64,000 bases of DNA from Solirubrobacterales bacterium (GTDB taxonomy: Bacteria > Actinomycetota > Thermoleophilia > Solirubrobacterales > 70-9). The position numbers and the translations under genes are program-made. Under the pieces are notes generated by a model that did not search any database, was not told the DNA's origin, and saw nothing but the letters and a program-made list of their open reading frames with translations. Location: the NCBI GenBank assembly GCA_035264885.1, contig DATFPK010000019.1, positions 2,885 through 66,884 on the forward strand, read 5' to 3'. The first letter of the stretch is position 1. Each line of letters opens with the position of its first letter. Below are positions 12,457 through 61,987 of this stretch, piece by piece.

Positions 12457-13065
12457 GTGACCGCGCGCCTCCTGATCGTCGCCGATGACTACGGGTACTC
12501 GCCGGCCTACAACCGCGGGATCCTCGAGGCGGTGCGGGCGGGGACGATCGACGCCGCCGGCGCCATGGTGGTCCGGCCCTGGTGCGACCCGGCGCCGCTC
12601 CTGAACGCCGGGGTCGAGGTCGGCCTGCACATCGAGGCGGGCGGGTCGCTCGACCTGCAGCTCGAGCGCTTCGAGCGCCTGTTCGGCGCACCGCCGCGCT
12701 ACCTCGACGGCCACCACCACTGCCACGCCGACCCGGGGCTCGAGGACGTGGTCGTGGACCACGCGCTGCGGCTCGGCGTCCGCGTGCGCTCGATCGACGA
12801 GCGCCAGCGTGGGCGCCTCCGCGAGACCGGCGTGGCGACGCCGGACCGCCTGGTGGGGCGGCTCGACGAGGCGCAGGACCCGCTCCTGCCGGAGATCGCG
12901 GCGGTGATCGGGGGCTCGGCGCCGCCGGAGGGCGTGACCGAGTGGATGACCCACCCGGGGCGGCGGGACGCGGAACTCGGCTCCCGCTACGACGAGGGGC
13001 GGGAGGCCGACCTCGAGCTGCTCTTGCGGCTCCGCGGCGACCCTGCGATCGCTGCCTGGCGCTGA
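12457..13065 (+). CDS. ChbG/YdjC/HpnK-family carbohydrate deacetylase
   Basis: GTG at 12457 gives VTARLLIVADDYGYS, a typical family N-terminus. LDGHHHCH metal motif. Confidence 0.8.
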   Translation: MTARLLIVADDYGYSPAYNRGILEAVRAGTIDAAGAMVVRPWCDPAPLLNAGVEVGLHIEAGGSLDLQLERFERLFGAPPRYLDGHHHCHADPGLEDVVVDHALRLGVRVRSIDERQRGRLRETGVATPDRLVGRLDEAQDPLLPEIAAVIGGSAPPEGVTEWMTHPGRRDAELGSRYDEGREADLELLLRLRGDPAIAAWR

Positions 13066-14462
13066 CGGCGGCGCCTGCGCTTCGGCGTCGCCTTCGAGAG
13101 CTCCTCCGTCACGGCCTCGAGCTCGAGCGCGAAGCTGTCCAGGTCGGCCATCGCGTCGTAGTCGCCGATCAGGCCGAAGCTGACCCTGCCGTTGTAGGAG
13201 AAGATGCCGACGCATAGGGCCTGCCTCTGGGCGAGCGGGACCATCGGGACGATCCGCTCCATCTCCCGGCCGAGGACGTAGAGCGGAAACTGCGGTCCGG
13301 GGATGTTCGTGATGACGAGGTTGAAGAACCGCTGGCGCGGCTGGAGCCGGGCCGCCTGCGCGGCGATCGTCGGTGGCGCGAAGTCGGCGAGCTGCGTGAG
13401 GATCTGGGCGCCGACGGCCTGGCCGGAGCTCTTCAGGTCGCCCATCGCCGCCGAGACGAGCCTGAGGCGCTCGACTGGGTCCTCGCACCAGATCGCCAGC
13501 GGGGCCATCATCCCGGCGACCCGGTTGCCGAGCGCCCCCTGGTGCTCGTCGGCTCGGACGCTGACCGGCACGAGCGCCCGCAGCTCGAGCTCCTCCGTGT
13601 CGTAGCCGCGGGCCCGCATGTACTTGCCGAGCGCGCCGGCGACGATCGAGAGGATCACGTCGTTGAGCGTGCCGCCGTGCTCGTTCTTGATCTGCTTGAG
13701 CTCGTCGACGTCGGCCTCGGCCCAGGTGAAGCGGCGGTGCGGCCCGATCTCCACGTTGAAGGGGCTGGGCGGGGCTCCCATTCCGGCGCCGAGAAGGCGT
13801 CCGGCGTTCGCCGCGCCGGCACCGACCTGCGAGGCCACCTGCCGTGGCCCCCGGAGCACCGCGCGGACGCCGCGGCCGATCTCGCGCGGCCTGGTCATCC
13901 GCTCGACCAGGGCATCGCCGAGCAGCTTGGCGCCCGACGGCTCGGGGCGGGGGAGCCACTCAGGACCGGGGCCCGGCTCCGTCTGCGGCTCGCGGGCGGT
14001 GTCGAACAGCACGGTCGTGATGTCCATACCGGAGACGCCGTCGACCAGGGCGTGATGGCTCTTGCCGATGATCGCGAAGCGGTCGCCCTCGAGGCCTTCG
14101 ACGAGCCAGAGCTCCCAGAGCGGCTTCGAGCGGTCGAGCTGCTGGGAGAAGATCCGGGCCGCGAGGTTGCGGAGCTGCTCCTCGGAGCCCGGCGCCGGCA
14201 GCGCGGTCCCGCGGACGTGGTACTCGAGGTTCAGGTGGGGGTCGTCGACCCAGACCGGCCGCCCCTGCCCGAACGGGACGAACCGAACCTTCTGGCGGAA
14301 GCGCGGCACCAGGTGGAGCCGCGAGCCGATGTGGTCGCGGAACTCCGCGTAGGAGGGCGCAGGTCCCGCGAACGTGGCGGTCGAGGCAACGTGCATGTGG
14401 GCGCCGTCCCGCTCCATGTGCAGGAACGAGGAGTCAAGGCCGCTCAGGCGCTCGCTGCTCAC
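12987..14462 (-). CDS. wax ester synthase / diacylglycerol acyltransferase (WS/DGAT)
   Basis: HHALVDG active-site motif. N-terminal LSGLDSSFLHME. 491 aa. Confidence 0.9.
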   Translation of the reverse strand: MSSERLSGLDSSFLHMERDGAHMHVASTATFAGPAPSYAEFRDHIGSRLHLVPRFRQKVRFVPFGQGRPVWVDDPHLNLEYHVRGTALPAPGSEEQLRNLAARIFSQQLDRSKPLWELWLVEGLEGDRFAIIGKSHHALVDGVSGMDITTVLFDTAREPQTEPGPGPEWLPRPEPSGAKLLGDALVERMTRPREIGRGVRAVLRGPRQVASQVGAGAANAGRLLGAGMGAPPSPFNVEIGPHRRFTWAEADVDELKQIKNEHGGTLNDVILSIVAGALGKYMRARGYDTEELELRALVPVSVRADEHQGALGNRVAGMMAPLAIWCEDPVERLRLVSAAMGDLKSSGQAVGAQILTQLADFAPPTIAAQAARLQPRQRFFNLVITNIPGPQFPLYVLGREMERIVPMVPLAQRQALCVGIFSYNGRVSFGLIGDYDAMADLDSFALELEAVTEELSKATPKRRRRRQRQAAIAGSPRSRKSSSRSASRPSS

Positions 14463-23713: not shown

Positions 23714-23877
23714 GTCCTCTCCTTTCCTCGCTTGCTCCGCATGGCTGCAGCTGTTTCACCCTAAGCCACGGGCACGGACCCGCGCAAGCGTCCAGGTCTG
23801 CGGCTTTCTACGGATGCCCGTCCGCAGGCACCCGCGTTAGCTTGGAAACTGGTCATCCCTCGAAGGCAAGGAGAGCC

Positions 23878-26088
23878 TTGGACCGCAGTCGCAACCTCGC
23901 CGCCCGCGCCGCCCACTGGAGCGCCAACCACCGCAAGGTGGCGATCTGGGGCTGGCTCGCGTTCGTCGTCGTCGCCGTCTTCCTCGGCAACGCCGTCGGC
24001 CAGCAGGTCATCCACGGGGCAGACCAGTTCTCCGGCGAGTCCGGCGACGCGGAGCAGGCGCTCTACGCCAACGGCCTGCGTCCGAACGACGAGCACATCC
24101 TGGTCCAGTCCGAGACGCTGACCATCGCCGACCCCGAATTCCAGAGCGCGATCAACGATTCGATCGCGAAGCTCGAGAAGACCGACGACGTCGTCGAGAT
24201 CCAGTCGCCGCTCGGCGGCGGCGCAGCGGTCACCGAGGATCAGCACTCCGCCCTCGTCAACTTCGAGATCACCGGCGACACGCTCGAGGCGGCGGATCGC
24301 GTCGACCCCTCGATAGCCGTCGTCGACGAGGTCGCTGCCGACCATCCCGATCTCACGGTCGAGCAGTACGGGGCCGCCAGCACCCAGAAGGAGCTGAACG
24401 AGATCTTCTCGGAGGACCTCCTCCAGGCGGAGACCCTGTCGCTGCCGATCACGCTGCTGATCCTGATCGTCGCCTTCGGGTCGATCGTCGCCGCGCTGGT
24501 ACCCCTCTCGATCGGGATCACGGCGGTGGCCGCCGCCTCGGCGCTGGTCGCGATCCCGAGCCACCTCTCCCCGGTGGACAGCAACCTCTCCTCGGTGATC
24601 CTGCTGGTCGGCCTCGCGGTGGGGGTCGACTACTCGCTCTTCTACCTGCGGCGCGAGCGCGAGGAACGCGACCGCGGGCATGACGCCCGCTCGGCGCTCG
24701 ACATCGCCGCGGCCACGTCCGGGCGGGCGGTCCTGATCTCCGGGCTCACCGTGATCGCCGCCATGGCCGGCATGTTCTTCACCGGCGACAAGACCTTCGT
24801 CTCGTTCGCACAGGGGACGATCCTCGTCGTCGCGATCGCGATGTTCGCCTCGGTCACCGTCCTGCCCGCGATCCTGGCCTGGCTCGGGGAACGGGTCGAG
24901 AAGGGCCGGATCCCCTTCCTGTCGCGGCGGGGCACCGGCGAGTCCCGCTTCTGGTCCGCGGTCATTGCTCGGGTGATGCGCAGGCCCTGGCTCTCGATCG
25001 TCCTCGCCGGCGGCTTCCTGGTCGCCCTGTCGATCCCGGCCCTCAACATGAAGATCGTCCAGAGCGGCCCCGACGACCTGCCGCAGGACCTCGCGGTCAT
25101 CCAGACCTACAACGACGTCCGCGACGCGTTCCCGACCGAGGCGGTCGCGGTCGACGTCGTCGTCCAGGGCGCCGACGTGCGTGACCCGGCGACTTCGGCC
25201 GGCATCTCCCAACTCCGTCAGCAGGCCGAGACGATGCCGCATGTGCTGCCCGGCTCCGAGGTCACCTACAGCGACGACGACACGGTCGCCCTCGTCACGA
25301 TCCCTACCGAGGGCAGCAGCAACGACGAGGTGGCCACCTCGGCGATGAACGAAATCCGCGAGACGGTCATCCCGGCGACGCTCGGAGGCGTCGAGGGCGT
25401 CTCCGTGAATGTCAGCGGCGACGCGGCGGGAGCCCAGGACTTCCGCGACCTCGTCTCCGACCGGCTGCCGCTGATTTTCATGTTCGTCTTCGCGCTCGCG
25501 TTCGTCCTGCTGCTGTTCACGTTCCGCTCGATCGTGATCCCGATCAAGGCGATCATCCTCAACCTGCTGTCGGTGGGAGCCGCATACGGCGTGCTCGTGC
25601 TGATCTTCCAGGACGGCCATGGCGAGGGCGTGCTCGACTTCACATCAAACGGCGGCGTCACGTCATGGCTGCCGCTGTTCCTGTTCGTCCTTCTCTTCGG
25701 TCTCTCGATGGACTACCACGTGTTCATCCTGTCGCGGGTCCGCGAGGCCTACGACAGTGGCATGACGACTGCCGAGGCCGTGCGCCACGGGATCACGACC
25801 ACCGCCGGGACGGTGACGAGCGCCGCCCTCGTGATGGTCTTCGTCTTCCTCGTCTTCGCGACGCTCCAGTTCATCGACTTCAAGCAGATGGGGATCGGGC
25901 TCGCGACCGCAGTGTTCATCGACGCGACGATCATCCGCGGCGTCCTCCTGCCGGCGTCGATGAAGGTGCTGGACGACTGGAACTGGTACCTGCCGAGCTG
26001 GCTCGAGTGGATCCCGCACATCGGCGGCGAGCCGCCCTCGACTCCGCCGCCGGCGGCCAAGCCCGCGGCGCCCGCCGCCCGCGCCTAG
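23878..26088 (+). CDS. MMPL family (RND superfamily) transporter
   Basis: ORF 23842..26088. TTG 23878 is preferred because AAGGAGAG lies 4 nt upstream. Two MMPL domains of 12 TM helices, with GVDYSLFYL and GLSMDYHVFIL motifs. Confidence 0.9.
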   Translation: MDRSRNLAARAAHWSANHRKVAIWGWLAFVVVAVFLGNAVGQQVIHGADQFSGESGDAEQALYANGLRPNDEHILVQSETLTIADPEFQSAINDSIAKLEKTDDVVEIQSPLGGGAAVTEDQHSALVNFEITGDTLEAADRVDPSIAVVDEVAADHPDLTVEQYGAASTQKELNEIFSEDLLQAETLSLPITLLILIVAFGSIVAALVPLSIGITAVAAASALVAIPSHLSPVDSNLSSVILLVGLAVGVDYSLFYLRREREERDRGHDARSALDIAAATSGRAVLISGLTVIAAMAGMFFTGDKTFVSFAQGTILVVAIAMFASVTVLPAILAWLGERVEKGRIPFLSRRGTGESRFWSAVIARVMRRPWLSIVLAGGFLVALSIPALNMKIVQSGPDDLPQDLAVIQTYNDVRDAFPTEAVAVDVVVQGADVRDPATSAGISQLRQQAETMPHVLPGSEVTYSDDDTVALVTIPTEGSSNDEVATSAMNEIRETVIPATLGGVEGVSVNVSGDAAGAQDFRDLVSDRLPLIFMFVFALAFVLLLFTFRSIVIPIKAIILNLLSVGAAYGVLVLIFQDGHGEGVLDFTSNGGVTSWLPLFLFVLLFGLSMDYHVFILSRVREAYDSGMTTAEAVRHGITTTAGTVTSAALVMVFVFLVFATLQFIDFKQMGIGLATAVFIDATIIRGVLLPASMKVLDDWNWYLPSWLEWIPHIGGEPPSTPPPAAKPAAPAARA

Positions 26089-33255: not shown

Positions 33256-34170
33256 ATGGAGAGCGGGGTCAGTAACCGCCCGACCCGCGACCGGCCGCTG
33301 GCGCTGCTCGTCAACCCGGCCTCGGGCGGCGGGCGCACGGCCGCGAAGCTGCCGCGGGTCGAGGAGGAGCTCGATAAGCGCCGGGCGGTCTTCCGGGTCG
33401 AGCGCACCCGCGACGCCGGTCACGCCGTCGCCGAGGCCCTGCGAGCTGCCGACGCCGGGGAAGTCCCCGTCGTGATGAGCGGCGACGGCCTGATCGCGAT
33501 CGTCGGCGGCGCTCTCGCCGGCACCCCCACCCCACTCGGCATCGTCCCGGGCGGCCGCGGGAACGACCTGGCCCGGGTCCTCGGCATCCCCAGCGACCCC
33601 GCCGGGGCGGTCACGGTCCTGACCACGGGCCGGGAGCGGCGGGTCGACGTCGGCGAGGCGAACGGCCGTCGCTTCCTCGGGGTCGCCAGCGTCGGCTTCG
33701 ACTCGGACGCCAACCGGATTGCCAACGAGACCAGGCTGGTCCGCGGCAACCTCGTATACGCCTATGCGGCGCTGCGGGCGCTGCTGGGCTGGAAGCACGC
33801 GCGCTTCACGATCGCGGTCGGCGAGGAGCGGATGCGGTTCACGGGCTACACCGTCGCCGTCGCGAACAGCAAAGCCTACGGCGGCGGGATGTTCATCGCC
33901 CCCGATGCCGACCTGGGCGACGGCGAGTTCGACGTGGTGATGTGCGGAGAGTCCGGCAAGCTCCACTTCGTCCGTAACCTGCCCAAGGTGTTCAAGGGCA
34001 CCCACGTCGATCAGGAGGAGATCAGGATCTTCCGGACGTCGCACCTCGAGGTGAGCGCCAGCCGCCCGTTCGCCATGTACGCCGACGGCGAGCGCCTGAC
34101 CGACCTGCCGGCGAGGTTGCGCGTCCTCCCCGACGCGCTCAGCGTGATCGTGCCGGCGACCGGCGCTTGA
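33256..34170 (+). CDS. diacylglycerol-kinase-family lipid kinase (YegS/DagK-like)
   Basis: LLVNPASGGG, SGDGLI, GRGNDLARVLG. TTGA overlap with murT. Confidence 0.9.
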   Translation: MESGVSNRPTRDRPLALLVNPASGGGRTAAKLPRVEEELDKRRAVFRVERTRDAGHAVAEALRAADAGEVPVVMSGDGLIAIVGGALAGTPTPLGIVPGGRGNDLARVLGIPSDPAGAVTVLTTGRERRVDVGEANGRRFLGVASVGFDSDANRIANETRLVRGNLVYAYAALRALLGWKHARFTIAVGEERMRFTGYTVAVANSKAYGGGMFIAPDADLGDGEFDVVMCGESGKLHFVRNLPKVFKGTHVDQEEIRIFRTSHLEVSASRPFAMYADGERLTDLPARLRVLPDALSVIVPATGA

Positions 34171-35540
34171 GCGCCTTCGGGGCGAAGCTCGCCTTGTCGC
34201 GGGCTCTCGGCGTTGTGAGCCGGGCGAGCGGACGGGGCGGCGGGACGACCCTGCCGGGCCGCGTCCTGCTGCGGCTGGAGCCGAGCGCGATCGCCAGGCT
34301 GGGCGCCCGCCTGGATCGCGGCGCCACGGTGATCAGCGCGACCAACGGGAAGACGACCACCGCCGGGATGCTGGCGTCGATCCTCGCGTCGGCCGGCCGC
34401 CATCCGGTGCACAACCGGGCCGGGTCGAACATGACCTGGGGCGTCGCGACCGCGCTGCTCGAGCAGGAGGGCGAGGAGGGGTTGTTCGAGGTGGACGAGG
34501 CCTGGCTGCCCCGCGTGGTGGAGCAGCTCGACGCCCGACTCGCCCTCCTCGGCAACCTGTTCCGCGACCAGCTCGACCGCTACGGGGAGCTCGAGACCCT
34601 GGCCGACGAATGGGCGGCGCTGGTCGACCGACGGGCCGGTCGAACCTCCTGGGTCCTCAACGCCGACGACCCGCTCGTCGCCGACCTCGGCCGTGACCGC
34701 GACGGGAGCCCGCGCGAGGCCGTGACCTATTTCGGCATCGACGACCCCGGTCAGGCGCTGCCCGAGCTGCAGCATGCCCACGACGCCAAGCACTGCCGCC
34801 GCTGCGGTCACGCGTACGAGTACGCGCGGGCCTTCGTCGGGCACCTCGGCCACTACCGTTGCCCCAGCTGCGGCGCCGAGCGGCCGGGGCCCGACGTGGC
34901 CGCGACGCGGATCGAGCTGCACGGGATGTCGGGCTCGACGGTCGCCGTGCGGACCCCCCAAGCCGAGTTCGAGCTGAGCGTCCCCCTGCCCGGTCTCTAC
35001 AACGTCTACAACGCGCTCGGGGCGCTGGCGGCGGCGCTGCGAATGGGCGCAACGCACGAGCAGGGCGCGACGGGCATCGGCCGGATGCGGGCGGTCTTCG
35101 GCCGGGTCGAGACGATCGAGGTCGAGGGGAAACCGGTCTCGATCCTGCTGATCAAGAACCCGGCCGGGGCGAACGAGGTCCTGCGGACGCTGCGGCTCGA
35201 GGCGGGGACCGGCCAGCTCGACCTCTGGATCGCTCTCAACGACCGGATCGCCGACGGCCGCGACGTCTCCTGGGTCTGGGACGCGGATTTCGAGCTGCTC
35301 GGCCCGCATGTGAGGCGAATCATCTGCGCGGGCACTCGAGCGGCCGAGATCGCGCTGCGGCTGAAGTACGCGGGCTGGCCGCAGGACCGGATCGAGGTCG
35401 AGCCGGCGATCGCCGCCTCGCTCGATGGCGCGGTCGCGCAGGCCTCCGACCGTCTCTTCGCTCTACCGACCTACACGGCGCTGCTCGAGCTGCGCAATCT
35501 GCTCGCCGACCGCGGTCTCGCGAAGGAGTACTGGGCGTGA
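34167..35540 (+). CDS. murT: lipid II isoglutaminyl synthase subunit MurT (Mur ligase family)
   Basis: P-loop ATNGKTTTAGM. Cys4 ribbon CRRCGHAYEY...YRCPSCG. DUF1727-like C-terminus. Confidence 0.9.
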   Translation: MSAFGAKLALSRALGVVSRASGRGGGTTLPGRVLLRLEPSAIARLGARLDRGATVISATNGKTTTAGMLASILASAGRHPVHNRAGSNMTWGVATALLEQEGEEGLFEVDEAWLPRVVEQLDARLALLGNLFRDQLDRYGELETLADEWAALVDRRAGRTSWVLNADDPLVADLGRDRDGSPREAVTYFGIDDPGQALPELQHAHDAKHCRRCGHAYEYARAFVGHLGHYRCPSCGAERPGPDVAATRIELHGMSGSTVAVRTPQAEFELSVPLPGLYNVYNALGALAAALRMGATHEQGATGIGRMRAVFGRVETIEVEGKPVSILLIKNPAGANEVLRTLRLEAGTGQLDLWIALNDRIADGRDVSWVWDADFELLGPHVRRIICAGTRAAEIALRLKYAGWPQDRIEVEPAIAASLDGAVAQASDRLFALPTYTALLELRNLLADRGLAKEYWA

Positions 35541-38181: not shown

Positions 38182-39531
38182 CTACTTGCCCGCGCCGGAC
38201 CGACCCGCGCCGTTGACGGAGAACTCCGCGAAGCGGTGGAGCTCGGCGGCGGGAACACGGGCGTGGACGAGGACGCCGTCCTCGCGCTCCTCGCGCTCGA
38301 GGTCGCCGGCGAGCTCGTGGAGCTCGGAGAGGCGGGCGCCCTCGCTGTAGGGGACGAGGAGCTCGACCTCGCGCAGGGTCTCCGCGAAGGCGCGCTCGAT
38401 TGCCTCCTCGAGCTGATCGAGCCCGGTCGCCTCGAGGGCGGAGACGAGCAAGGCGCCGGGATGCCGGAGCAGGACCTCGCGCTGCTCGTCGTCGTCGAGC
38501 AGATCGGCCTTGTTGAAGACCAGAAGGCGGGGCTTGCCCCCCGCGCCGATCTCCTCGAGTACGTCGTCGACCGCGCGCATGTCGGCCTCGCGCCGCTCCT
38601 CCGGCGCCGCAGCGTCGACGACGTGCAGGATCAGGTCCGACAGCGTCGTCTCCTCGAGCGTAGCCTTGAAGGCCTCGACGAGCTGGTGGGGCAGCTTCTC
38701 GATGAACCCGACGGTGTCGGTCACGAGGTAGCGGCGGCCGTCGTGCTCGAACGAGCGCGTGGTCGGGTCGAGGGTGTGGAACAGGCGGTCCCCGATGCTC
38801 GTCTCGGATCCGGTCATCGCGTTCTGCAGGGTCGACTTGCCGGCGTTCGTGTACCCCGCGAGGGCGACGCGGGGTACCGAGGACCGCTCGCGCCGAGCCC
38901 GCATCACATCGCGCGTGCGCTCGGTGCGGCTGAGCCTCCGCCGCAGCGCCGAGATCCGGTCGCGGGCGAGGCGGCGATCGGTCTCGATCTGGGACTCACC
39001 TGGGCCCCTGGTGCCGATGCCGCCGTCCATCCGGCCGGCGCCGAGACGCTCGAGGTGCGTCCACAGGCCGCGCATCCGGGCCAGGTTGTACTCGAGCTGG
39101 GCGAGCTCGACCTGGAGCTTGCCCTCGGCCGAGTGCGCATGGGCGGCGAAGATGTCGAGGATGATCGCCGTGCGGTCGATGACCGGTACGCCCAGCGCCG
39201 CCTCCAGATTGCGCTCCTGGCGCGGCGCCAGCTCGTCGTCACAGGCGACGAGGTTGGCGTCGCGACGCGCGATCTCCGTCTTCAGCTCCGCCAGCTTCCC
39301 GCGCCCGAAGTAGCGATCGGGGTCGGGCCGGTCACGCGGCTGGATCATCTGCCCGGCGGTCGCCACCCCCGCGGTCCGCAGCAGCTCCTTGAGCTCCTCC
39401 AGCGGCTCCTCGCCATGGCCGTCGGAGATCCCGATCGCCAGCGCCCGCTGCCGGGCTCGCGCCTTCGCGACGCCTGCGGCGCCGTCTCCGTTCCACGCCT
39501 GCGGGCTGCCTCCGTTGCTGGATCTGGGCAC
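38182..39531 (-). CDS. hflX: GTPase HflX
   Basis: G1 GYTNAGKST, DTVGFI, NKADL, HflX N-terminal domain. Confidence 0.9.
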   Translation of the reverse strand: MPRSSNGGSPQAWNGDGAAGVAKARARQRALAIGISDGHGEEPLEELKELLRTAGVATAGQMIQPRDRPDPDRYFGRGKLAELKTEIARRDANLVACDDELAPRQERNLEAALGVPVIDRTAIILDIFAAHAHSAEGKLQVELAQLEYNLARMRGLWTHLERLGAGRMDGGIGTRGPGESQIETDRRLARDRISALRRRLSRTERTRDVMRARRERSSVPRVALAGYTNAGKSTLQNAMTGSETSIGDRLFHTLDPTTRSFEHDGRRYLVTDTVGFIEKLPHQLVEAFKATLEETTLSDLILHVVDAAAPEERREADMRAVDDVLEEIGAGGKPRLLVFNKADLLDDDEQREVLLRHPGALLVSALEATGLDQLEEAIERAFAETLREVELLVPYSEGARLSELHELAGDLEREEREDGVLVHARVPAAELHRFAEFSVNGAGRSGAGK

Positions 39532-39575: not shown

Positions 39576-40571
39576 GTGATGAAGGTTTTCGTCACCGGCG
39601 GCACCGGATTCATCGGCGGTCACGTGGTGCGCCGTCTGCGCGATCGTGGCGACGGCGTCGTCTGCCTGGTCCGGGACCTCGGCAAGGGCGCCGAGCTCGA
39701 GGCGCTCGGCGCGACGCTGGTCGAGGGCGACCTCTCGCGCGGGGGCGTCATCTCCACCGCCATGCAGGGCTGCGACGCAGCGATCCACGGCGCCGCGATC
39801 TACGAGGTCGGCATCCCGAAGGGCGAGCGGCGCGCGATGCACGAGGCCAACGTGGTCGGGACCGAGCGGGTCCTCCGCGCCGCGCTCGAAGCTAAGGTGC
39901 CGAGGGTCGTCTACATCTCCACCGTCGCCGCGTTCGGTAACACCCACGGGGAGGTCGTGGACGAGACCTACGTGCACCCGGGCCAGGAGTTCACCTCCTA
40001 CTACGAGGAGACGAAGGTCGAGGCCCACCGGATCGCGAGGCGGATGATCGACGACGAGGGCCTGCCCCTGGTGATCGTCCAGCCCGGCGGCGTCTACGGC
40101 CCCGAAGACCACTCCTCGGTCGGCCAGCAGATCAATCAGTTCCTCGCCGGCCGGCTCCCGATGCTGCCGTTCCCCGACCTCGGCCTGAACCTCGTCCACG
40201 TCGAGGACGTCGCTGACGGCGTCCTGCTCGCGCTCGACAAGGGCCAGGTCGGCGAGTCCTACGTGCTCGGCGGCGAGATCACCTCCATGCGTGGCCTGAT
40301 CGACACCGTCGGCCGGGTTGCCGGGAGAAAGCCGCCGAAGCGGGCAATGCCGACCGCGATGCTGAAGCTGATGACGCCCGCCGGGCCGGTCGTCGGCAAG
40401 CTGATGGGCCAGCCGCCCAATCTCCGCGAGTTGATCAGCTCCGCCGACGGCGTCACGTTCTGGGCCCGCCACGACAAGGCGATGCAGGAGCTCGGCTACT
40501 CTCCGCGGGGGCTGGAGCAGGGGATCCGCGAGACCCTGGCCGCCGAGGGCAAGCTGCCCGCGGCCGCCTGA
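39576..40571 (+). CDS. NAD-dependent epimerase/dehydratase family (extended SDR)
   Basis: KVFVTGGTGFIGGHVV. YEETKVEAH (YxxxK). Confidence 0.9.
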   Translation: MMKVFVTGGTGFIGGHVVRRLRDRGDGVVCLVRDLGKGAELEALGATLVEGDLSRGGVISTAMQGCDAAIHGAAIYEVGIPKGERRAMHEANVVGTERVLRAALEAKVPRVVYISTVAAFGNTHGEVVDETYVHPGQEFTSYYEETKVEAHRIARRMIDDEGLPLVIVQPGGVYGPEDHSSVGQQINQFLAGRLPMLPFPDLGLNLVHVEDVADGVLLALDKGQVGESYVLGGEITSMRGLIDTVGRVAGRKPPKRAMPTAMLKLMTPAGPVVGKLMGQPPNLRELISSADGVTFWARHDKAMQELGYSPRGLEQGIRETLAAEGKLPAAA

Positions 40572-43334: not shown

Positions 43335-44504
43335 CTACGCGAGGTGCATCCTCATCCGCTCGACCGCCTCCGCCAGGCGGTCCTCGGGCGTGGTCAGCGA
43401 GATCCGGATGAAACCCTCGCCGCTCGGTCCGTACATCGCGCCCGGCGAGACCACCACGCCCGCCTCCTCCAGCACGAGCTCCGCGAACGAGGTCGAGGTG
43501 TGGCCCTCCGGGACCGGCGCCCAGACGTAGATGGTGCCCCTGGGCACCGGGACGTCGACGCCGATCTCGCGCAGCGCGCCGACGACCAGGTCGCGGCGGC
43601 GGGCATAGGTCTCGTTCATCCGATCGAGCGGCCCCCGCGGCCCTTCGAGGGCGGCGACGCCGGCGAGCTGGACGGCCTCGAAGAGACCGGAGTCGACGTT
43701 GGTCTTCAGTCTCCAGTAGGCCTCGATGGCATCCCGGTTGCCCAGGATGGCGGCGCAGCGCCAGCCGGTCATGTTGAAGCCCTTCGAGAGCGAGAACACC
43801 TCGACGCCGACCTCCTTGGCGCCCGGTGTGGCCAAAAAGCTCGGCGCTTCGTAACCGTCGAACGTGGTCTCCGAATAGGCGCTGTCGTGGACGACGAGGG
43901 TCTCGTGCTCGCGGGCGAACGAGACCACGAGCTCGAAGAACCCATCCGGCACGACCGCCCCGGTCGGGTTGTTCGGATAGTTGACGAACATCAGGCGGGC
44001 CCTGCGGGCCACGTCGGCGGGCACGGAGCTCAGGTCAGGGGCGAAGCCCAGATCGGGGCTCAGGGGCAGCAGCTCGGCGGACGCGCCGGCCAGGGTGGGC
44101 CCGCCGGTGTAGACCGGGTATCCGGGGTCCGAGGCGAGGGCCACGTCGCCCGGGTCGAGGAAGGCGAAGCACAGGTTGTAGATGCACTCCTTGGCGCCGA
44201 TCGCCGGGATCACCTCAGCCTCCGCATCGATCTCGACCCCGAAGCGCCGCCCGTAGAAGCTCGCGAAGGCGTTTCGGAACTCGCCCCTGCCCCGGTTCGA
44301 CGGGTAGTTGTGGGTCCCGGGCCGGGCGACGGCCTCCTGCATCGCCTTGACGATGTGCGGATACGTCGGCTCGTCCGGATCCCCGATTCCGAGGCTGATC
44401 ACGTCGACCCCGGCCGCCTTCTTCTCGGCGATCCGCCGCTCGAGCTCGGCGAACATGTACGGAGGGATCGCCTCGAGACGGCGCGCGGGATCGGTCAGGG
44501 CCAC
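43335..44504 (-). CDS. dapL: class I/II aminotransferase, probable LL-diaminopimelate aminotransferase
   Basis: IPPYMFAELERR...GIGDPD, NNPTG, PLP-lysine SLSKGFNMTGWR. Adjacent to dapF. Confidence 0.75.
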   Translation of the reverse strand: MALTDPARRLEAIPPYMFAELERRIAEKKAAGVDVISLGIGDPDEPTYPHIVKAMQEAVARPGTHNYPSNRGRGEFRNAFASFYGRRFGVEIDAEAEVIPAIGAKECIYNLCFAFLDPGDVALASDPGYPVYTGGPTLAGASAELLPLSPDLGFAPDLSSVPADVARRARLMFVNYPNNPTGAVVPDGFFELVVSFAREHETLVVHDSAYSETTFDGYEAPSFLATPGAKEVGVEVFSLSKGFNMTGWRCAAILGNRDAIEAYWRLKTNVDSGLFEAVQLAGVAALEGPRGPLDRMNETYARRRDLVVGALREIGVDVPVPRGTIYVWAPVPEGHTSTSFAELVLEEAGVVVSPGAMYGPSGEGFIRISLTTPEDRLAEAVERMRMHLA

Positions 44505-44526: not shown

Positions 44527-45372
44527 TCAGATCTCCGCGAGCGCCGCCACCAGGTCCTCCGATAGCTGGCCTGAGCAGATCGGTTCCGCCCAGCCGGTCA
44601 GATGCACCTCGAGGTCGTCCGCGACCTCCACCTCGAGCTCGCCGCCGTCGAGGCGCACGGCGACGGGGCTGCTCGAGCCCATGAGGACGGCCGCTACCGC
44701 GGCCCCGCAGGCGCCGGTTCCCGATGACAGCGTCTCCCCCACCCCCCGCTCGAAGATCCGCGCCCGCACGGCGCCGCCGTCGATCGCGATGAACGAGACG
44801 TTCGTCCGGTTGGGAAACAGCTCGGAGCGCTCGATCTCGGGGCCGATCGAGGCGAGGTCGAGCGCCTCGACCTCCTCCCCCGCCTCGATCACGCACTGGG
44901 GATTGCCGATCGAGACGTGCTGGAAGCGCCACTCGCGCCCGCCGGCGGTGAGCGTGCCGGTCCCATCCCTCCCGCCGCTCGGGTAGTCCTTCGAGCTGGT
45001 CGACGCGCGACCCATCGCCACCCGCGCCCTGCGGTCGTCGACGATCTCCGGCGTGACCGCGCCGGCCATGCTCCCGATCGAGAAGCGCGGTCCCGGAGTC
45101 CAGCCATGGCGGTGCAGGTACATCGCCGCCTCCCGCACGCCGTTCCCCGACAGCTCCGCCTCCGAGCCGTCGGGGTTGAAGATCCGCAGGTCGGCGACCA
45201 GGTCGCGGTCCTCGCTCGGCGAGAGCAGGAGGATGCCGTCGGAGCCGATCCCGAAGTGGCGGTCGCAGATGCGCCTGACGCGCTCCGGCGTCAGATCCCA
45301 GGGGAGGCTCGGCGCCCCGAGGATCACGTAGTCGTTGCCGAGCGCCGTCCACTTCTCGAAGGCGAGGCTCAT
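44527..45372 (-). CDS. dapF: diaminopimelate epimerase homologue (both catalytic Cys positions are Ser)
   Basis: LGNDYVIL, FNPDGSEAELSGNG, GNPQCV, ERGVGETLSSGTGAC. ATGA overlap with miaA. Conserved miaA-dapF synteny. Confidence 0.9.
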   Translation of the reverse strand: MSLAFEKWTALGNDYVILGAPSLPWDLTPERVRRICDRHFGIGSDGILLLSPSEDRDLVADLRIFNPDGSEAELSGNGVREAAMYLHRHGWTPGPRFSIGSMAGAVTPEIVDDRRARVAMGRASTSSKDYPSGGRDGTGTLTAGGREWRFQHVSIGNPQCVIEAGEEVEALDLASIGPEIERSELFPNRTNVSFIAIDGGAVRARIFERGVGETLSSGTGACGAAVAAVLMGSSSPVAVRLDGGELEVEVADDLEVHLTGWAEPICSGQLSEDLVAALAEI

Positions 45373-46262
45373 CGCGGCGCCAGTATCCCAGCGATCTCGG
45401 CCGCGACCTCGGCGTCGCCGCGGTCGCCGCGGTCGACGATCTCGACCCTCGGCATCCGCCGCATCCAGGTGAGCTGGCGGCGCGCGTAGCGCCGATGGAC
45501 CGCCTTGACCGCTTCGAGGTCGGCGGCGAGCATCTCGTCGAATCCCAGGGCGGCCCGGGCGGTGCGGGAGATCCCGCGGCGGTCCGCCTCCCGAGCCTGC
45601 TCGACGGCCCCGGCCACGGCCATCGCCTCGACCCGGGCGGCGATCCGCCGGTCGAGCAGCTCGCGGTCGGCGACGAGGCCGAACAGCCGGCTCGGTCGCC
45701 GTGGCGATGCGGTCCAGAGCCGATCGCCACTCGGGGCCGGTTCGATCCCTGCCCGGCGGAGCTCGGTCCAGCGGGCGATCCGCTTGCGGTCGTTGGGGTG
45801 GACGGCGGCGGACAGCTCCGAGGGCAGCTCGGCGTGGAGGGCATCGGGGCCGCGGGCGGCGATCTCGGCCTCCACCTCGTCGCGGACCTCCGCCGGGACC
45901 GCCGGGCGCAGGTCGAGGTCGGCCAGCGCCGCCCGCAGGTAGAGGCCGGTGCCGCCGACCACGATCGGGCGGCGCCCGGCACCGAGCAGGTCGTCGATCT
46001 CGGCGTGCGCCAGCGCAGCGAAGCGCCCCACGCTGAACTCCTCGGACGGGTCGAGGAAACCGACCAGGCGGTGCTCGAGGCGGCGCCGCTCGTCCGCGCT
46101 CGCGGCGCCGCTGACGATCTCGAGGCCGCGATAGACCTGGATCGCGTCGCAGGAGACCGCCACCGGCTCCTCCCCCCTTCGGCGCAGGTCCTCGGCGAGC
46201 GCGACCGCGACGCCGGTCTTCCCGGCCGCGGTCGGGCCGAAGATCGCGACCAGCTCCGGCAC
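45369..46262 (-). CDS. miaA: tRNA dimethylallyltransferase
   Basis: P-loop GPTAAGKTG. 297 aa. Confidence 0.95.
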   Translation of the reverse strand: MPELVAIFGPTAAGKTGVAVALAEDLRRRGEEPVAVSCDAIQVYRGLEIVSGAASADERRRLEHRLVGFLDPSEEFSVGRFAALAHAEIDDLLGAGRRPIVVGGTGLYLRAALADLDLRPAVPAEVRDEVEAEIAARGPDALHAELPSELSAAVHPNDRKRIARWTELRRAGIEPAPSGDRLWTASPRRPSRLFGLVADRELLDRRIAARVEAMAVAGAVEQAREADRRGISRTARAALGFDEMLAADLEAVKAVHRRYARRQLTWMRRMPRVEIVDRGDRGDAEVAAEIAGILAPR

Positions 46263-46266
46263 GGCG

Positions 46267-47583
46267 TCAGCCGGCGCGACTGAGGATGCGCTCGCTGCCG
46301 GTCAGGGTCGTCGAGGACGCCTCGAGGACTTCGACGTCGACCAGCTCGCCCGGAGCCGCGGTGCCCTCGAAGTTGGCGGCCTTGTTGTGGCGGACCCTGC
46401 CCCGCAGGCGGGTCGGGTCGGTCCGGCTCGGCCCCTCGACGAGCACCTCCATCGTGCGCCCGACGAAGCGTTGCGCCCGCTCCCGGGCGCGGCGCTGGAC
46501 CAGGTCGACCAGCCGGTCGAGCCGTTCGACCTTCTCGCGGTGCGGCAGCTGACCGTCCATCTCGGCCGCTTCGGTGCCGCGGCGCGGGGAGAAGAGGAAG
46601 GTGAAGGCGCCGTCGAACCCGACCTCGTCCACCACCTCGAGCGTCTGCTCGAAGTCGACCGCGGTCTCGCCCGGGAACCCGACGATGATGTCGGTGGTGA
46701 CCGCGCAGTCGGGCACCGTCTCCCTGATCAGCGCGACCCGCTGCATGTAGCGCTCGCGGTTGTAGGTCCTGCGCATCCGCTTCAGGACCGCGCTCGAGCC
46801 CGACTGCAGCGGGAGATGGATGTGCTCGCAGAGGGCGGGCAGCTCGGCGTGGGCCCGGATCACGTCCTCGCGCATGTCCTTCGGGTGTGGGCTCGTGTAG
46901 CGGATCCGGTCGATGCCCTCGACCGCGTCGATGCGTGCCAGCAGCTCGGCGAAGCTGATCCGACGCTCCTTCGGCAGGTCACGCCCGTAGCTGTTGACGT
47001 TCTGGCCGAGGAGCGTCAGCTCGCGGACGCCGTCCGCGGCCAGGCCCTGGGCCTCGCGCACGAGCTCGGATGGCTCGCGGCTGACCTCGCGGCCCCGCGT
47101 CGACGGCACGATGCAGTAGGAGCAGACGCAGTTGCACCCCTGCGAGATCTGAAGCCAGCCTTGGAATTCGCGTTCGCGCTTCGACGGCAGGTGCCCCGAG
47201 ACGTCCTCGAACTCGAAGTACCCCTGCGCGGTCAGCGAGTCCGCGGTGAGGAACTCGGCCAGCTTGTGGATCTGGCCGGGGCCGAATGCCACGTCGACGA
47301 ACGGGAAGCGGTCGAAGACCTCGTGCTTGACCGACTGCGCCCAGCAGCCGCCCACACCGACCACCCGGGACGGATTCTCGGTCTTCAGGCGCTTCGCCTC
47401 GCCGAGGTGCGCGACGAAGCGGTTGTCGGCCGACTCCCGGATCGAGCAGGTGTTGAAGAGGATGAGGTCGGCGTCGGCGCGGCTCTCGGCCTCCGCGTAG
47501 CCCAGCGACTCGAGCATCCCGCGCATGCGCTCGGAGTCGTGCACGTTCATCTGGCACCCGAAGGTGGTGACGTGGTACTTCAC
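46267..47583 (-). CDS. miaB: tRNA (N6-isopentenyl-A37) methylthiotransferase
   Basis: N-terminal UPF0004 TFGCQMN, radical-SAM CNCVCSYC, TRAM domain. Confidence 0.95.
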   Translation of the reverse strand: MKYHVTTFGCQMNVHDSERMRGMLESLGYAEAESRADADLILFNTCSIRESADNRFVAHLGEAKRLKTENPSRVVGVGGCWAQSVKHEVFDRFPFVDVAFGPGQIHKLAEFLTADSLTAQGYFEFEDVSGHLPSKREREFQGWLQISQGCNCVCSYCIVPSTRGREVSREPSELVREAQGLAADGVRELTLLGQNVNSYGRDLPKERRISFAELLARIDAVEGIDRIRYTSPHPKDMREDVIRAHAELPALCEHIHLPLQSGSSAVLKRMRRTYNRERYMQRVALIRETVPDCAVTTDIIVGFPGETAVDFEQTLEVVDEVGFDGAFTFLFSPRRGTEAAEMDGQLPHREKVERLDRLVDLVQRRARERAQRFVGRTMEVLVEGPSRTDPTRLRGRVRHNKAANFEGTAAPGELVDVEVLEASSTTLTGSERILSRAG

Positions 47584-48251: not shown

Positions 48252-49799
48252 CTACTTCGCGTAGGTCGTGGCGCGGCTCTCCCGGATCACCGTGATCTTG
48301 ATCCGCCCGGGGTAGTCCATCTCGCGCTCTACGGCGGTGGCGATCTCGTGTGAGATCAGCGCCGCGGACTCGTCGTCGATCTCCCCGGGGTCCACCATCA
48401 CGCGGATCTCACGACCGGCCTGCATCGCATAGACCTTCTCGACGCCGGCATGTCGCTGGGCGATCTCCTCGAGGTCGCGGAGGCGGGAGACGTATTGCTC
48501 CAGGGACTCGCCGCGGGCCCCCGGCCGGGCCCCGGAGAGGGCGTCGGCGGCCTGCACGATGACCGCCTCGACGGTGCGGGGCTCGACCTCGTTGTGGTGG
48601 GACTCGATCGCGTGGGCGACCGCTTCGGGCTCTTCGTAGCGGCGGGCCAGCCGGGCGCCGACGATCGCGTGGGTGCCCTCGACGTCGTGGCTGACCGCCT
48701 TCCCGATGTCGTGGAGAAGCGCGCCGCGACGCGCCACCTCCGGCGAGGCGCCGAGCTCGGCGGCCATCAGGCCGGCGAGGTGGGAGCACTCCACCAGATG
48801 GTCGAGGACGTTCTGCCCGTAGCTGGTCCGGAACTTGAGCCTCCCCAGCAGGCGGACGAGCTCCGGATGGACGCCCGTGATCCGCGCCTCCAGCAGCGCC
48901 CGCTCTGCCTCTTCGACGATCCGGTCCTCCATCTCCCCCTTGGCCTGTTCGTAGGCCTCCTCGCAGCGCGCCGGGTGGATGCGGCCGTCCTCGATCAGCT
49001 TCTCGAGGGTGAGGCGGGCGATCTCACGGCGGACCCCGTCGAAGCTCGCGAGCAGGACAGCACACGGCGTCTCGTCGATGATGAAGTCGACCCCCGTCAG
49101 GTTCTCGAGGGCCCGGATGTTGCGGCCCTCGCGCCCGATGATCCGGCCCTTCATCTCGTCGTTCGGGAGCTGGACGAGCCTGGTGGTGGTCTGGCCCGCC
49201 TGGGTCGCAGCCAGGCGTTGCATGGCGACGGCAAGGATGCCGCGGGCCCGCCGCTCGGCTTCCAGCCGGGTCTCCTCCTCGATCCGCTGCAGGGTGAGGC
49301 CGGCCTGCTGGCGGGCCTCGTCCTCGACCTCCTTGAGCAGGACGTGGCGCGCCTGGGCGGCGCTGAGGCCGGCGATCTTCTCGAGCTCGCGGCGGTGGCG
49401 GCGCTTGATCTGGCGCATCTCCTCGGCCTGGTTGTCCAGGTTGCGCTCGCGGTCGTCGAGCGACGTCCGGCGTCGCTCGAGCTCGCGTAGCTGCGTCTCG
49501 ACCGACTCCATCTGGCGCAACGCCCTCTCCTCCATCCGGACGATCTCCTCGCGCCGCGCGCGGAGCTCGGCATGGACTTCGGCCTCGCCCCTCCCGTCCG
49601 CCTCGGGCGGCGGCTCGCCGGCAGGCGCCTCGGGCGCGGCACGGTTCGCCCCCTCGCCGGAGACAGGCGGCTGCGCGGGACTCGCCACGGGGGAGATCGG
49701 AGGCGGCGGGGGCGCAGGGGAAGTCCCGTCCCGCTCCGGCTCGGCGGCCACGCTCTCCTCACGTAGCCGAACCCACGGCGGCAGCCAAGTCCGGATCAT
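48252..49799 (-). CDS. rny: ribonuclease Y
   Basis: KH domain GRIIGREGRNIR, HD domain LLHDIGKA. SD GGAGAGGAAA before ATG 49799. Confidence 0.95.
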   Translation of the reverse strand: MIRTWLPPWVRLREESVAAEPERDGTSPAPPPPPISPVASPAQPPVSGEGANRAAPEAPAGEPPPEADGRGEAEVHAELRARREEIVRMEERALRQMESVETQLRELERRRTSLDDRERNLDNQAEEMRQIKRRHRRELEKIAGLSAAQARHVLLKEVEDEARQQAGLTLQRIEEETRLEAERRARGILAVAMQRLAATQAGQTTTRLVQLPNDEMKGRIIGREGRNIRALENLTGVDFIIDETPCAVLLASFDGVRREIARLTLEKLIEDGRIHPARCEEAYEQAKGEMEDRIVEEAERALLEARITGVHPELVRLLGRLKFRTSYGQNVLDHLVECSHLAGLMAAELGASPEVARRGALLHDIGKAVSHDVEGTHAIVGARLARRYEEPEAVAHAIESHHNEVEPRTVEAVIVQAADALSGARPGARGESLEQYVSRLRDLEEIAQRHAGVEKVYAMQAGREIRVMVDPGEIDDESAALISHEIATAVEREMDYPGRIKITVIRESRATTYAK

Positions 49800-60426: not shown

Positions 60427-61302
60427 CTAACCCGCCCTCGCGAGGACCCCGGCGTCCTCGAGCGCGGCCCGGACGGCCGCCCGCTCGGGTTCGCCCGCCG
60501 GCACGAGCGGCAGCCGCATCCGCTCGTCGATGATCCCGAGCATCCCGAGCCCCGCCTTGACGGTGATCGGGTTCGTCACCGAGACGGCCGCGTACACCGG
60601 TGCCAGCGCCGCGTCGATCCGTCGAGCACGCCCGTGATCGCCCTCCGCGAACGCATTCCAGATCTCCCGCATCTGGGCTCCGACGAGGTGCGTGGCGACG
60701 AGGATCCCACCCGCCCCGCCGAACTCGAGGGTCCGCAGGAAGACCGAGTCGTTGCCGGCCAGGACGTCGATCCCCTCGACCGGCCCGAGCTCGTCGTCGT
60801 TGGCCTGCTTCACCGCCACCACGTTCTCCAGCCTGCCGATCTCGGCGAGGCCCTGGGGGTCGATGTTGACCACGACCCGGGAGGGGATGTTGTAGAGGAC
60901 GATCGGCAGCCCGACGGCGTCGACCTCTGCGTAGTGGGCCAGAAGGCCCTCGAAGTTGGGCTTGTTGTAGTACGGCGTGACGACCAGGGCCGCGTCGGCG
61001 CCCGCCTCCGCCGCGCGCTCCGTCAGCTGGACGCTGTGGCGGGTGTCGTTCGAGCCGGTCCCCAGGATCAGGCTCGCGTCGTCCCCGAGCTCCTCCTTGA
61101 CCTCGCGCAGGAGCGCGAGCTTCTCGTCGTCGCTGAGGGTCGGCGATTCCCCGGTGGTGCCGGCGATGACCAGCCCGTGGGACCCGTGGTCGATGAGGTG
61201 CGCCGCGAGCCGCCGCGCCCCGGCCAGGTCCACTGCGCCATCGGCGCCGAACGGGGTCGCCATGGCGGTCAGGACGCCGCGAATCGGCTTCATGCGTTCC
61301 AC
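60427..61302 (-). CDS. dapA: 4-hydroxy-tetrahydrodipicolinate synthase
   Basis: GTTGESPTLS, YNIPSR, Schiff-base Lys in VVAVKQA. Confidence 0.95.
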   Translation of the reverse strand: MERMKPIRGVLTAMATPFGADGAVDLAGARRLAAHLIDHGSHGLVIAGTTGESPTLSDDEKLALLREVKEELGDDASLILGTGSNDTRHSVQLTERAAEAGADAALVVTPYYNKPNFEGLLAHYAEVDAVGLPIVLYNIPSRVVVNIDPQGLAEIGRLENVVAVKQANDDELGPVEGIDVLAGNDSVFLRTLEFGGAGGILVATHLVGAQMREIWNAFAEGDHGRARRIDAALAPVYAAVSVTNPITVKAGLGMLGIIDERMRLPLVPAGEPERAAVRAALEDAGVLARAG

Positions 61303-61321: not shown

Positions 61322-61987
61322 CTAGAGCAGGCACTCCAGGCCGGCGGTGAAGCGGTCGGGCAGGTCGGCGATCTTGCGGACCGCGAGCAGGACCCCGGGC
61401 ATGAACGAGCGGCGGTCGATCGAGTCGTGGCGGATCGAGAGCGTCTGGCCTTCGCCTCCGAACAGGACCTCCTGATGGGCGACTAGCCCGGGCAGCCGGA
61501 CCGAATGAATCGGATCGTGAACGCTGCCGCCGGCGGCGGAGATCAGCTCGGCCGTCCGCTTCGCGGTCCCGGACGGCTTGTCGAGCTTGCGGTCGTGGTG
61601 GAGCTCGACGATCTCGCATTCCGGCATGTGCGGAGCGATTTTCTCTGCCGCCTGCATCATCAGCACGGCGCCGATCGCGAAGTTCGGGGCGACGAAGCAG
61701 TTGGCCCGGCCCCCCTGCGCCGCCTCCTCCAGCGCCGCCAGGTCGAAGCCGGTCGTGCCGACCACCGCGTGGACGCCGCCGTCGAGCGCCGTCCGGACGT
61801 TGGCCGGCGCCGCGTCAGGGGTCGTGAAGTCGACGACGACGTCGGTGCCGTCGAGGCAGTCGCCGAGATCGACGCCGAGGGCCGGGTCGGCCTCGGCAAC
61901 CAGCTCCATGTCCTCGGCGCTCCGAACCGCCTCGGTCACGGCCTGGCCCATCCGCCCCGCCGCGCCCGAGACGACGACCTGGATCAC
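61322..61987 (-). CDS. dapB: 4-hydroxy-tetrahydrodipicolinate reductase
   Basis: SGAAGRMG, ELHHDRKLDKPSGTA. GTGA overlap with the upstream gene. Confidence 0.9.
   Translation of the reverse strand: MIQVVVSGAAGRMGQAVTEAVRSAEDMELVAEADPALGVDLGDCLDGTDVVVDFTTPDAAPANVRTALDGGVHAVVGTTGFDLAALEEAAQGGRANCFVAPNFAIGAVLMMQAAEKIAPHMPECEIVELHHDRKLDKPSGTAKRTAELISAAGGSVHDPIHSVRLPGLVAHQEVLFGGEGQTLSIRHDSIDRRSFMPGVLLAVRKIADLPDRFTAGLECLL

Follow-up and report, generated by a model that had tools for sequence, protein, structure and literature searches.

Serine at both catalytic cysteine positions of the Solirubrobacterales DapF, a candidate thiol-independent diaminopimelate epimerase

Described epimerases and the Solirubrobacterales DapF

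Diaminopimelate (DAP) epimerase, DapF, is the textbook two-base racemase of the thiol/thiolate type, and it is an antibiotic target whose inhibitors (aziridino-DAP and thiol-reactive compounds) need its cysteines. What, then, should be made of a dapF orthologue that encodes serine at both catalytic positions? The gene in question lies in a stretch of 64,000 nucleotides from a Solirubrobacterales bacterium (contig DATFPK010000019.1 of assembly GCA_035264885.1), the whole of which is referred to here as the window. Judged from sequence comparison, the Solirubrobacterales DapF appears rather likely to be a working, thiol-independent LL/meso-DAP epimerase with two serines as its acid/base residues, and a thiol-free version probably exists beside the textbook thiol enzyme. 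A natural Ser/Ser DapF, occurring throughout a clade and in a larger, undescribed group, would be new as far as the full-text literature shows: no description of one was found there, most subscription journals being outside our reach, and databases annotate the Ser/Ser proteins simply as diaminopimelate epimerase.

The canonical DapF enzymes of Haemophilus influenzae, Escherichia coli, Anabaena, Arabidopsis thaliana, Corynebacterium glutamicum and Mycobacterium tuberculosis employ Cys73 and Cys217 as a thiol-thiolate pair, which is taken as the defining feature of the enzyme class (PMC12039745). The window DapF is like them in its matches to family hidden Markov models (HMMs), its two-domain fold, its DAP-binding residues, the location of its acid/base positions at helix N-termini, its miaA-dapF-hflX slot and its pathway partners. 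It is unlike them in its Ser/Ser pair and Gln159, in the co-varying positions 42, 72, 192 and 216, and in that the inactivating Cys-Cys disulfide is impossible. Serine replaces a catalytic cysteine, in the same fold, in the engineered C73S and C217S mutants of H. influenzae DapF (PDB 2Q9H and 2Q9J), which are among the structural matches of the window protein. These, however, are single laboratory changes in a thiol-tuned scaffold, whereas the window DapF has both serines, apparently fixed by selection, together with neighbours that seem to have co-evolved. Residual activity in the C73S and C217S mutants was reportedly seen by Koo et al. in 2000.

In the proline-racemase superfamily, Ser/Cys or Cys/Thr members carry a hydroxyl in place of one cysteine. 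EcL-DER, a Thr/Cys aspartate/glutamate racemase, is a natural two-base, cofactor-independent enzyme with a hydroxyl for one catalytic cysteine (PMC8142540). Both belong to families other than that of the window DapF, one of them with another fold, and in both a single cysteine is replaced and the direction or type of reaction is altered. To our knowledge, a double serine pair has not been reported in the EcL-DER family or the proline-racemase superfamily. DAP epimerisation without a thiol is known from the staphylococcal DapF2, a pyridoxal 5'-phosphate (PLP)-dependent enzyme of the alanine-racemase fold (bioRxiv 10.1101/2024.10.14.618325), whose existence indicates that this step has been re-solved in evolution; its fold and cofactor chemistry are unrelated to those of the window protein, which has a true DapF fold in the predicted model and, PF01678 being its only recognised family, neither an alanine-racemase nor a PLP-binding domain. 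The O-ureidoserine racemase DcsC and the histidine racemase HisR share the DapF fold (match to 7vdy with E 7.9e-36 and template modelling (TM) score 0.87-0.90) but are Cys/Cys enzymes with altered substrate pockets, whereas the window DapF keeps the DAP pocket and the DAP-pathway context.

Active site, conservation and origins of the serine pair

Membership of the DapF family, claimed in an earlier note made from the DNA sequence alone, is borne out by scores above threshold for both TIGR00652 (195.1 bits, cutoff 114.65, over residues 4-271 of 281) and PF01678 (136.5 bits, cutoff 34.7, in two domains); a Pfam scan of the protein found no family besides PF01678, and the model of the Chlamydia-type bifunctional DapF/glutamate racemase, NF038284, gave 48.1 bits against a cutoff of 350. 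In phmmer alignments with DapFs of known structure, from Anabaena (9mro), Arabidopsis (3ejx) and Acinetobacter (5ha4) at E 1e-51 to 7e-45, there is no gap around either motif, with Ser75 opposite the cysteine of PEMCGNG and Ser217 facing that of TLACGTGA, and a MAFFT alignment with E. coli DapF pairs C73 with S75, C217 with S217 and H159 with Q159. The earlier reading of two TCG serine codons at the catalytic positions is thus correct (Table 1), although it overlooked the replacement of His159, the residue of the GNPH motif next to Cys217, by glutamine, as well as the clade-wide nature of the trait, the larger Ser/Ser group with its lysine-operon contexts and its LysA and MurE fusions, and the Ser/Cys hybrids described below. 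With Ser75 and Ser217 for the thiol/thiolate pair, the window protein is by its sequence a member of the DapF homologous family that falls outside the mechanistic class as now defined. Could another cysteine have taken over? The protein has four, Cys36, Cys160, Cys222 and Cys266. Canonical Cys/Cys DapFs have Cys36 and Cys160 just as often, serine occupies position 222 (GSSSS) in the broad Ser/Ser members compared from Nostoc, Verrucomicrobia and Deltaproteobacteria, and no clade-specific new cysteine emerged when Cys/Cys/His, Ser/Ser/His and Ser/Ser/Gln groups were compared.

The AlphaFold model of the window DapF, built on 40 homologues (predicted local distance difference test 91.6, predicted TM score 0.88), shows the two-domain alpha/beta DapF fold, and its top 26 PDB matches are all DapF or DcsC (TM 0.84-0.91). 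Matches to the PhzF/YddE and proline-racemase-like branches are far below these, at 14-19% identity and TM 0.64-0.75. Location of the catalytic cysteines at helix N-termini is a hallmark of DapF (PMC12039745); in the model Ser75 directly precedes helix 76-88 and Ser217 directly precedes helix 218-230, so that the predicted place of each serine is the N-terminus of one of the two active-site helices, precisely that of the corresponding cysteine. Among about 60 sequences each of the three groups, and in the window DapF itself, the DAP-binding residues (E. coli N11, N64, G74, N75, N157, N190, E208, R209, G218 and S/T219) are invariant, and the differences between groups cluster near the catalytic residues, at positions 42, 72, 73, 159, 192, 213, 216, 217 and 220-221.

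The serine state is not peculiar to one genome. Among the nearest 120 database homologues (69-100% identity), the Ser75 motif and the Ser217 motif are each present in 119, none has cysteine at position 75 or 217, and all have GNPQ. The earlier note had proposed looking at orthologues in related genomes, and these turned out to be Ser/Ser too: at 80 loci from 80 GTDB species genomes labelled Solirubrobacterales, Conexibacter, Thermoleophilaceae or Thermoleophilia (57-72% identity), the Ser217 motif and GNPQC are found in all 80 and the Ser75 motif in 78. Glutamine 159 is present in all Solirubrobacterales-type relatives, histidine being kept in Gaiellales and in the broad Ser/Ser group. The serine codons vary synonymously (TCG 45, TCC 29, TCT 3 and TCA 1 for Ser75; TCG 36, TCC 35, TCT 4, AGC 3 and TCA 2 for Ser217), which indicates that serine has long been kept by selection, and mean DapF identity across the 80 genomes, at 67%, lies between that of miaA (54%) and dapL (79%), as expected of an ordinary functional gene. 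On this comparative evidence purifying selection has fixed the Ser/Ser state throughout the Solirubrobacterales-type clade. At residue 38 (45259..45261, minus strand) the window DapF has arginine (CDRH, like canonical enzymes), where 93% of the Ser/Ser/Gln clade has proline (CDPH); it is the sole difference between the window DapF and the database protein P0001.

How widespread is the pair? A HMMER search of 1.84 billion cluster representatives returned, among its best 150 matches, about 66 full-length Ser/Ser proteins, 40 Cys/Cys, one Cys/Ser and one Arg/Ser, which fall into three classes: Ser/Ser/Gln, canonical Cys/Cys/His (40) and Ser/Ser/His (44). The Ser/Ser/His class has the motifs FNPDGSEAEKSGNG and ERGAGYTLASGSSS, and 118 of the top 120 matches to its own profile are again Ser/Ser/His. 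The source labels of these matches name Nostoc sp. (PCC 7524 and FACHB-152), Verrucomicrobia, Deltaproteobacteria and candidate division KSB1, and Ser/Ser/His proteins occur in Gaiellales as well. The broad Ser/Ser/His proteins share with the window DapF both serines, the binding pocket, DAP/lysine operon contexts and the DapF annotation, but differ from it in His159, Lys72, Tyr213 and Ser220/221. They are 39-40% identical to the window DapF, which by plain similarity is closer to a Cys/Cys protein (47%).

A KSB1 contig has the operon lysC-dapB-dapA-dapF(Ser/Ser)-aminotransferase-lysA, a complete lysine pathway of the DapL type with no epimerase candidate besides the Ser/Ser gene, and the order dapF(Ser/Ser)-dapA-dapB is found on a second contig. 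Fusions above the curated cutoffs join Ser/Ser domains to LysA (TIGR01048, 360 and 410 against a cutoff of 298), to MurE (TIGR01085, 451 against 257) and to Alr (TIGR00492, 379 against 168); LysA and MurE both consume meso-DAP, so that these two fusions fit a real epimerase. The fusion proteins of the Ser/Ser/His class are P0198 (L084 127-2553), P0181 (L087 8001-10211), P0157, P0241 and P0260, with MurE, LysA, alanine racemase or an S-adenosylmethionine methyltransferase domain as partner. Other Ser/Ser genes lie in muropeptide-catabolic clusters with an LD-carboxypeptidase-like S66 peptidase, an M55 D-aminopeptidase, an NlpC/P60-SH3 endopeptidase and oligopeptide transporters. One salvage-like cluster (L083 7241-15566) encodes, in this order, an Alr-like protein, DapF(Ser/Ser), a second Alr-like protein, an M20 peptidase, an M55 D-aminopeptidase, an S66 LD-carboxypeptidase, a LysA fragment and an M19 dipeptidase, and adjoins oligopeptide ATP-binding cassette transporter genes. 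Three of the gene contexts inspected gave no functional clue, and the neighbours of the Nostoc Ser/Ser/His genes P0427 and P0358 (L089 8001-8858) are uninformative. Cyanobacteria also carry a canonical Cys/Cys DapF (Anabaena 9mro), and the Nostoc Ser/Ser protein is probably a second copy beside it.

Did the serines arise once? In neighbour-joining trees with the three catalytic columns masked, the Ser/Ser/Gln clade has 96-98% bootstrap support, and its union with the Gaiellales Ser/Ser/His proteins 47-57%. Grouping of the Thermoleophilia Ser/Ser proteins with the broad Ser/Ser/His class, that is, monophyly of all Ser/Ser proteins, is found at 21-25%, and their grouping with actinobacterial Cys/Cys proteins at 23-35%, so the trees do not separate a single Ser/Ser origin from the latter arrangement. 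Three proteins, P0482, P0484 and P0504, are Ser73/Cys217 hybrids (ELSGNG with ETSACGTGAC); they form a clade at 100%, nested within Cys/Cys proteins of metagenome-assembled genomes (MAGs) labelled Thermoleophilia (83-100%), which implies that a catalytic cysteine has been replaced by serine more than once in the DapF family. The independent origin of this Ser/Cys trio is, for the sequences sampled, the only origin that the trees support.

A probable working epimerase and its rivals

How might such an enzyme work? Domain closure would place the substrate C-alpha between Ser75 and Ser217; one serine, as an alkoxide or via a proton relay, would take the alpha-proton, and the hydroxyl of the other would reprotonate the opposite face. 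The relay may draw on the helix dipoles, the substrate ammonium or Glu208, and the co-varying positions 42 (Ser), 72 (Leu/Lys), 159 (Gln), 192 (Ser/Gln) and 216 (Ser) are candidates for having retuned the pocket. A slower enzyme would suffice. The kcat/Km values of the E. coli, H. influenzae and Anabaena enzymes are about 1e5-1e6, and 8.4e5 for that of E. coli (PMC12039745), and the native M. tuberculosis DapF, at 883 M-1s-1 (PMC8142540), falls short of the E. coli enzyme in efficiency by a factor of about 100-1000. This low mycobacterial efficiency, together with the growth of E. coli without dapF, suggests that a serine-adapted scaffold could meet the need. Meso-DAP is the diagnostic peptidoglycan diamino acid of all Solirubrobacterales (PMC3035278) and DapL makes LL-DAP, so that an epimerisation step or a bypass must exist; dapF and dapL are arranged for co-transcription. 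The rarity of mixed states also counts for function, since a decaying gene would be expected to show replacements at random. In canonical DapF a disulfide between the catalytic cysteines causes reversible inactivation (PMC5296763); immunity to such oxidation would be a plausible, if speculative, selective advantage for aerobic soil bacteria. The broader proposition, that cofactor-independent amino-acid epimerisation without thiols operates in a large, widespread set of DapFs, including the sole Solirubrobacterales dapF and those of operons of the KSB1/PVC (Planctomycetes-Verrucomicrobia-Chlamydiae) type, with the Ser state arising repeatedly from Cys/Cys and giving an oxidation-proof route to meso-DAP, seems to us evenly poised between right and wrong.

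Several considerations weigh against a working Ser/Ser epimerase. We know of no Ser/Ser cofactor-independent amino-acid racemase that has been shown to work, and the acidity of a serine hydroxyl is far below that of a thiol. The Solirubrobacterales form is, from its sequence, also without His159. Mutation of Cys to Ser hinders catalysis in canonical DapF-fold enzymes and is used for their crystallography (PMC12039745). In E. coli without dapF, weak substitution by another racemase keeps the cells viable, and there is a family of PLP-dependent DapF2 enzymes (bioRxiv 10.1101/2024.10.14.618325), so that the true epimerase could be encoded elsewhere. Some Ser/Ser genes adjoin, or are fused with, genes for Alr-like PLP racemases, and the Alr-like genes of the L083 cluster could be PLP-type, DapF2-like DAP epimerases, which complicates the picture. 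Nostoc has a Ser/Ser/His protein and cyanobacteria have a canonical DapF besides, a hint that the Ser/Ser form in Nostoc is more than a redundant copy.

The earlier note had set out three readings, a naturally Ser/Ser epimerase, a DapF fold recruited to another reaction and a pseudoenzyme, without ranking them; the evidence now favours the first over the other two. An artefact of sequencing or assembly, or a pseudogene in decay, has nothing to recommend it beyond the rarity of Ser/Ser among textbook enzymes. Both are vanishingly improbable in the light of intact open reading frames (ORFs), the same state in the 120 homologues and 80 independent genomes, the synonymous codon variation and the level of DapF identity. 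A DAP-binding pseudoenzyme, which binds LL- or meso-DAP without epimerising it and acts as a sensor, as a chaperone, as a channelling partner for DapL, LysA or MurE, or in a moonlighting role, is a more serious rival, though in our view an unlikely one. The meso-DAP would then be made by a PLP-dependent DapF2/Alr-like epimerase, a promiscuous racemase or Ddh. The impaired Cys-to-Ser mutants (PMC12039745), the survival of E. coli without dapF and the existence of DapF2 (bioRxiv 10.1101/2024.10.14.618325), and the Alr-family proteins fused to or flanking some Ser/Ser domains all suit this explanation; E. coli DapF acts non-catalytically as a partner of RppH (PDB 6d13, among the sequence and structure matches), and a ligand sensor would also keep its binding pocket invariant. 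It is harder to reconcile with strict serine at both positions, never Ala, Gly or Thr, and with the dominant both-or-none pattern; strictness at the protein level with synonymous variation in the codons argues that the hydroxyls themselves are needed. Nor does it sit well with the complete KSB1 lysine operon, which holds no other epimerase candidate, or with a gene in the exact slot of the Cys/Cys DapF of sister lineages. No Alr-like or Ddh-like gene was found among the scanned ORFs of the window, and tblastn searches that used E. coli, Cys/Cys and Ser/Ser sequences as queries gave no second DapF-like gene in the window or, over loci of about 12 kb, within 6 kb in any of the 80 genomes.

Might the scaffold instead have been recruited to some other reaction, with DAP or a near relative of it as substrate, such as a one-directional stereoinversion, a reaction of the elimination/dehydratase type, or the conversion of acylated or peptide-bound DAP or of lanthionine? 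This would parallel the swaps of catalytic residues in the proline-racemase superfamily. In other cofactor-independent racemase families the replacement of one cysteine goes with an altered outcome, the Thr/Cys Asp/Glu racemase being unidirectional (PMC8142540), and 3-hydroxyproline dehydratases share the fold (PMC8142540, and the structure matches). The Ser/Ser/His genes in muropeptide-catabolic clusters, the apparent extra copy in Nostoc and the several pocket-adjacent positions that co-vary with the serine pair would fit as well. Yet the residues that bind both ends of DAP are all unchanged, the biosynthetic operons and the LysA and MurE fusions call for production of meso-DAP, which is the canonical reaction, and the operon partner DapL is kept across the boundary from Cys/Cys to Ser/Ser, so that we regard recruitment as quite improbable.

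If the Ser/Ser DapFs are active, as we favour, they would represent a new cofactor-free chemistry for deprotonating the alpha-carbon of an amino acid, would be insensitive to thiol-directed inhibitors and to oxidative inactivation through a disulfide, and would explain meso-DAP and lysine synthesis in abundant soil Actinomycetota. Should they be inactive, the annotation of thousands of genomes is wrong and the real DAP epimerase of these has yet to be named, a problem that pathway-gap tools would miss because the family HMM still fires.

Genomic neighbourhood of the window dapF

The earlier note's argument from gene order has proved sound. The start codon of dapF and the stop codon of miaA share the ATGA at 45369..45372, the adjacent aminotransferase is of the DapL type, and hflX is present further downstream. 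The order dapB-dapA-rnj-ftsK-cinA-recA-rny-miaB-miaA-dapF-dapL...hflX (Table 1) places dapA and dapB of the DAP/lysine pathway in the same conserved actinobacterial block as dapF and dapL, and it presumably matches the dapB...recA...miaB-miaA-dapF-hflX region of M. tuberculosis. About 78 of the 80 related genomes share the arrangement miaB-miaA-dapF-dapL(-hflX), dapL following dapF directly with a median of 31 bp between the aligned segments; a Gaiellales contig shows it too, with a Ser/Ser/His DapF. The nearest Cys/Cys relatives come from MAGs labelled Gaiellales, Thermoleophilia or Actinomycetes, and the two of them inspected have rny-miaB-...-miaA-dapF(Cys/Cys)-aminotransferase, continued in one of them (L091) by hflX-dut-nudix, and the DapL downstream of a related Cys/Cys DapF is 60% identical to that of the window. 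Paralogy of these Thermoleophilia/Gaiellales-labelled Cys/Cys proteins was considered and rejected for the two inspected, since both occupy the rny-miaB-miaA-dapF-dapL slot; the Ser/Ser gene and the two Cys/Cys genes thus hold one and the same locus in different lineages and are orthologues. The window gene is the positional orthologue of actinobacterial dapF, as the earlier note had maintained.

Table 1. Coordinates of dapF, its variant codons and other genes of the window
Feature	Position	Strand	Evidence or remark
dapF orthologue, 281 aa, Ser/Ser/Gln active-site variant	44527..45372	-	PF01678, TIGR00652, predicted fold
Ser75 codon TCG, in place of catalytic Cys73 (H. influenzae/E. coli numbering)	45148..45150	-	alignments
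Ser217 codon TCG, in place of catalytic Cys217	44722..44724	-	alignments
Gln159 codon CAG, in place of His159, invariant in canonical DapF (GNPHC to GNPQC)	44896..44898	-	
dapL, LL-diaminopimelate aminotransferase, 22 bp downstream of dapF	43335..44504	-	NF006756 533.9 vs cutoff 507
miaA, stop overlaps dapF start	45369..46262	-	TIGR00174 E 3.7e-42, 144.6 bits, just below cutoff 148.65
miaB	46267..47583	-	TIGR01574 491 vs cutoff 355
hflX	38182..39531	-	TIGR03156 421 vs cutoff 217
dapA, 4-hydroxy-tetrahydrodipicolinate synthase	60427..61302	-	TIGR00674 236 vs cutoff 206
dapB, 4-hydroxy-tetrahydrodipicolinate reductase	61322..61987	-	TIGR00036 192 vs cutoff 122
RNase J (rnj)	58760-60421		conserved actinobacterial block
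ftsK	55261-57741		conserved actinobacterial block
cinA	53170-54465		conserved actinobacterial block
recA	50407-51522		conserved actinobacterial block
RNase Y (rny)	48252-49799		conserved actinobacterial block
MurT-like ORF of the Mur-ligase family	34167..35540	+	lipid II isoglutaminyl synthase subunit model, well below cutoff
HpnA-like hopanoid-associated sugar epimerase homologue	39576..40571	+	below cutoff
Wax-ester/triacylglycerol synthase	12987..14462	-	above cutoff
MmpL-like resistance-nodulation-division transporter	23842..26088	+	

Other cell-envelope genes lie in the same region. The window has a MurT-like ORF, and a MurT/GatD pair is found near dapF in the Gaiellales locus L086 (13169-15246). 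Lipid-envelope genes of the window comprise the HpnA-like homologue, the wax-ester/triacylglycerol synthase and the MmpL-like transporter.

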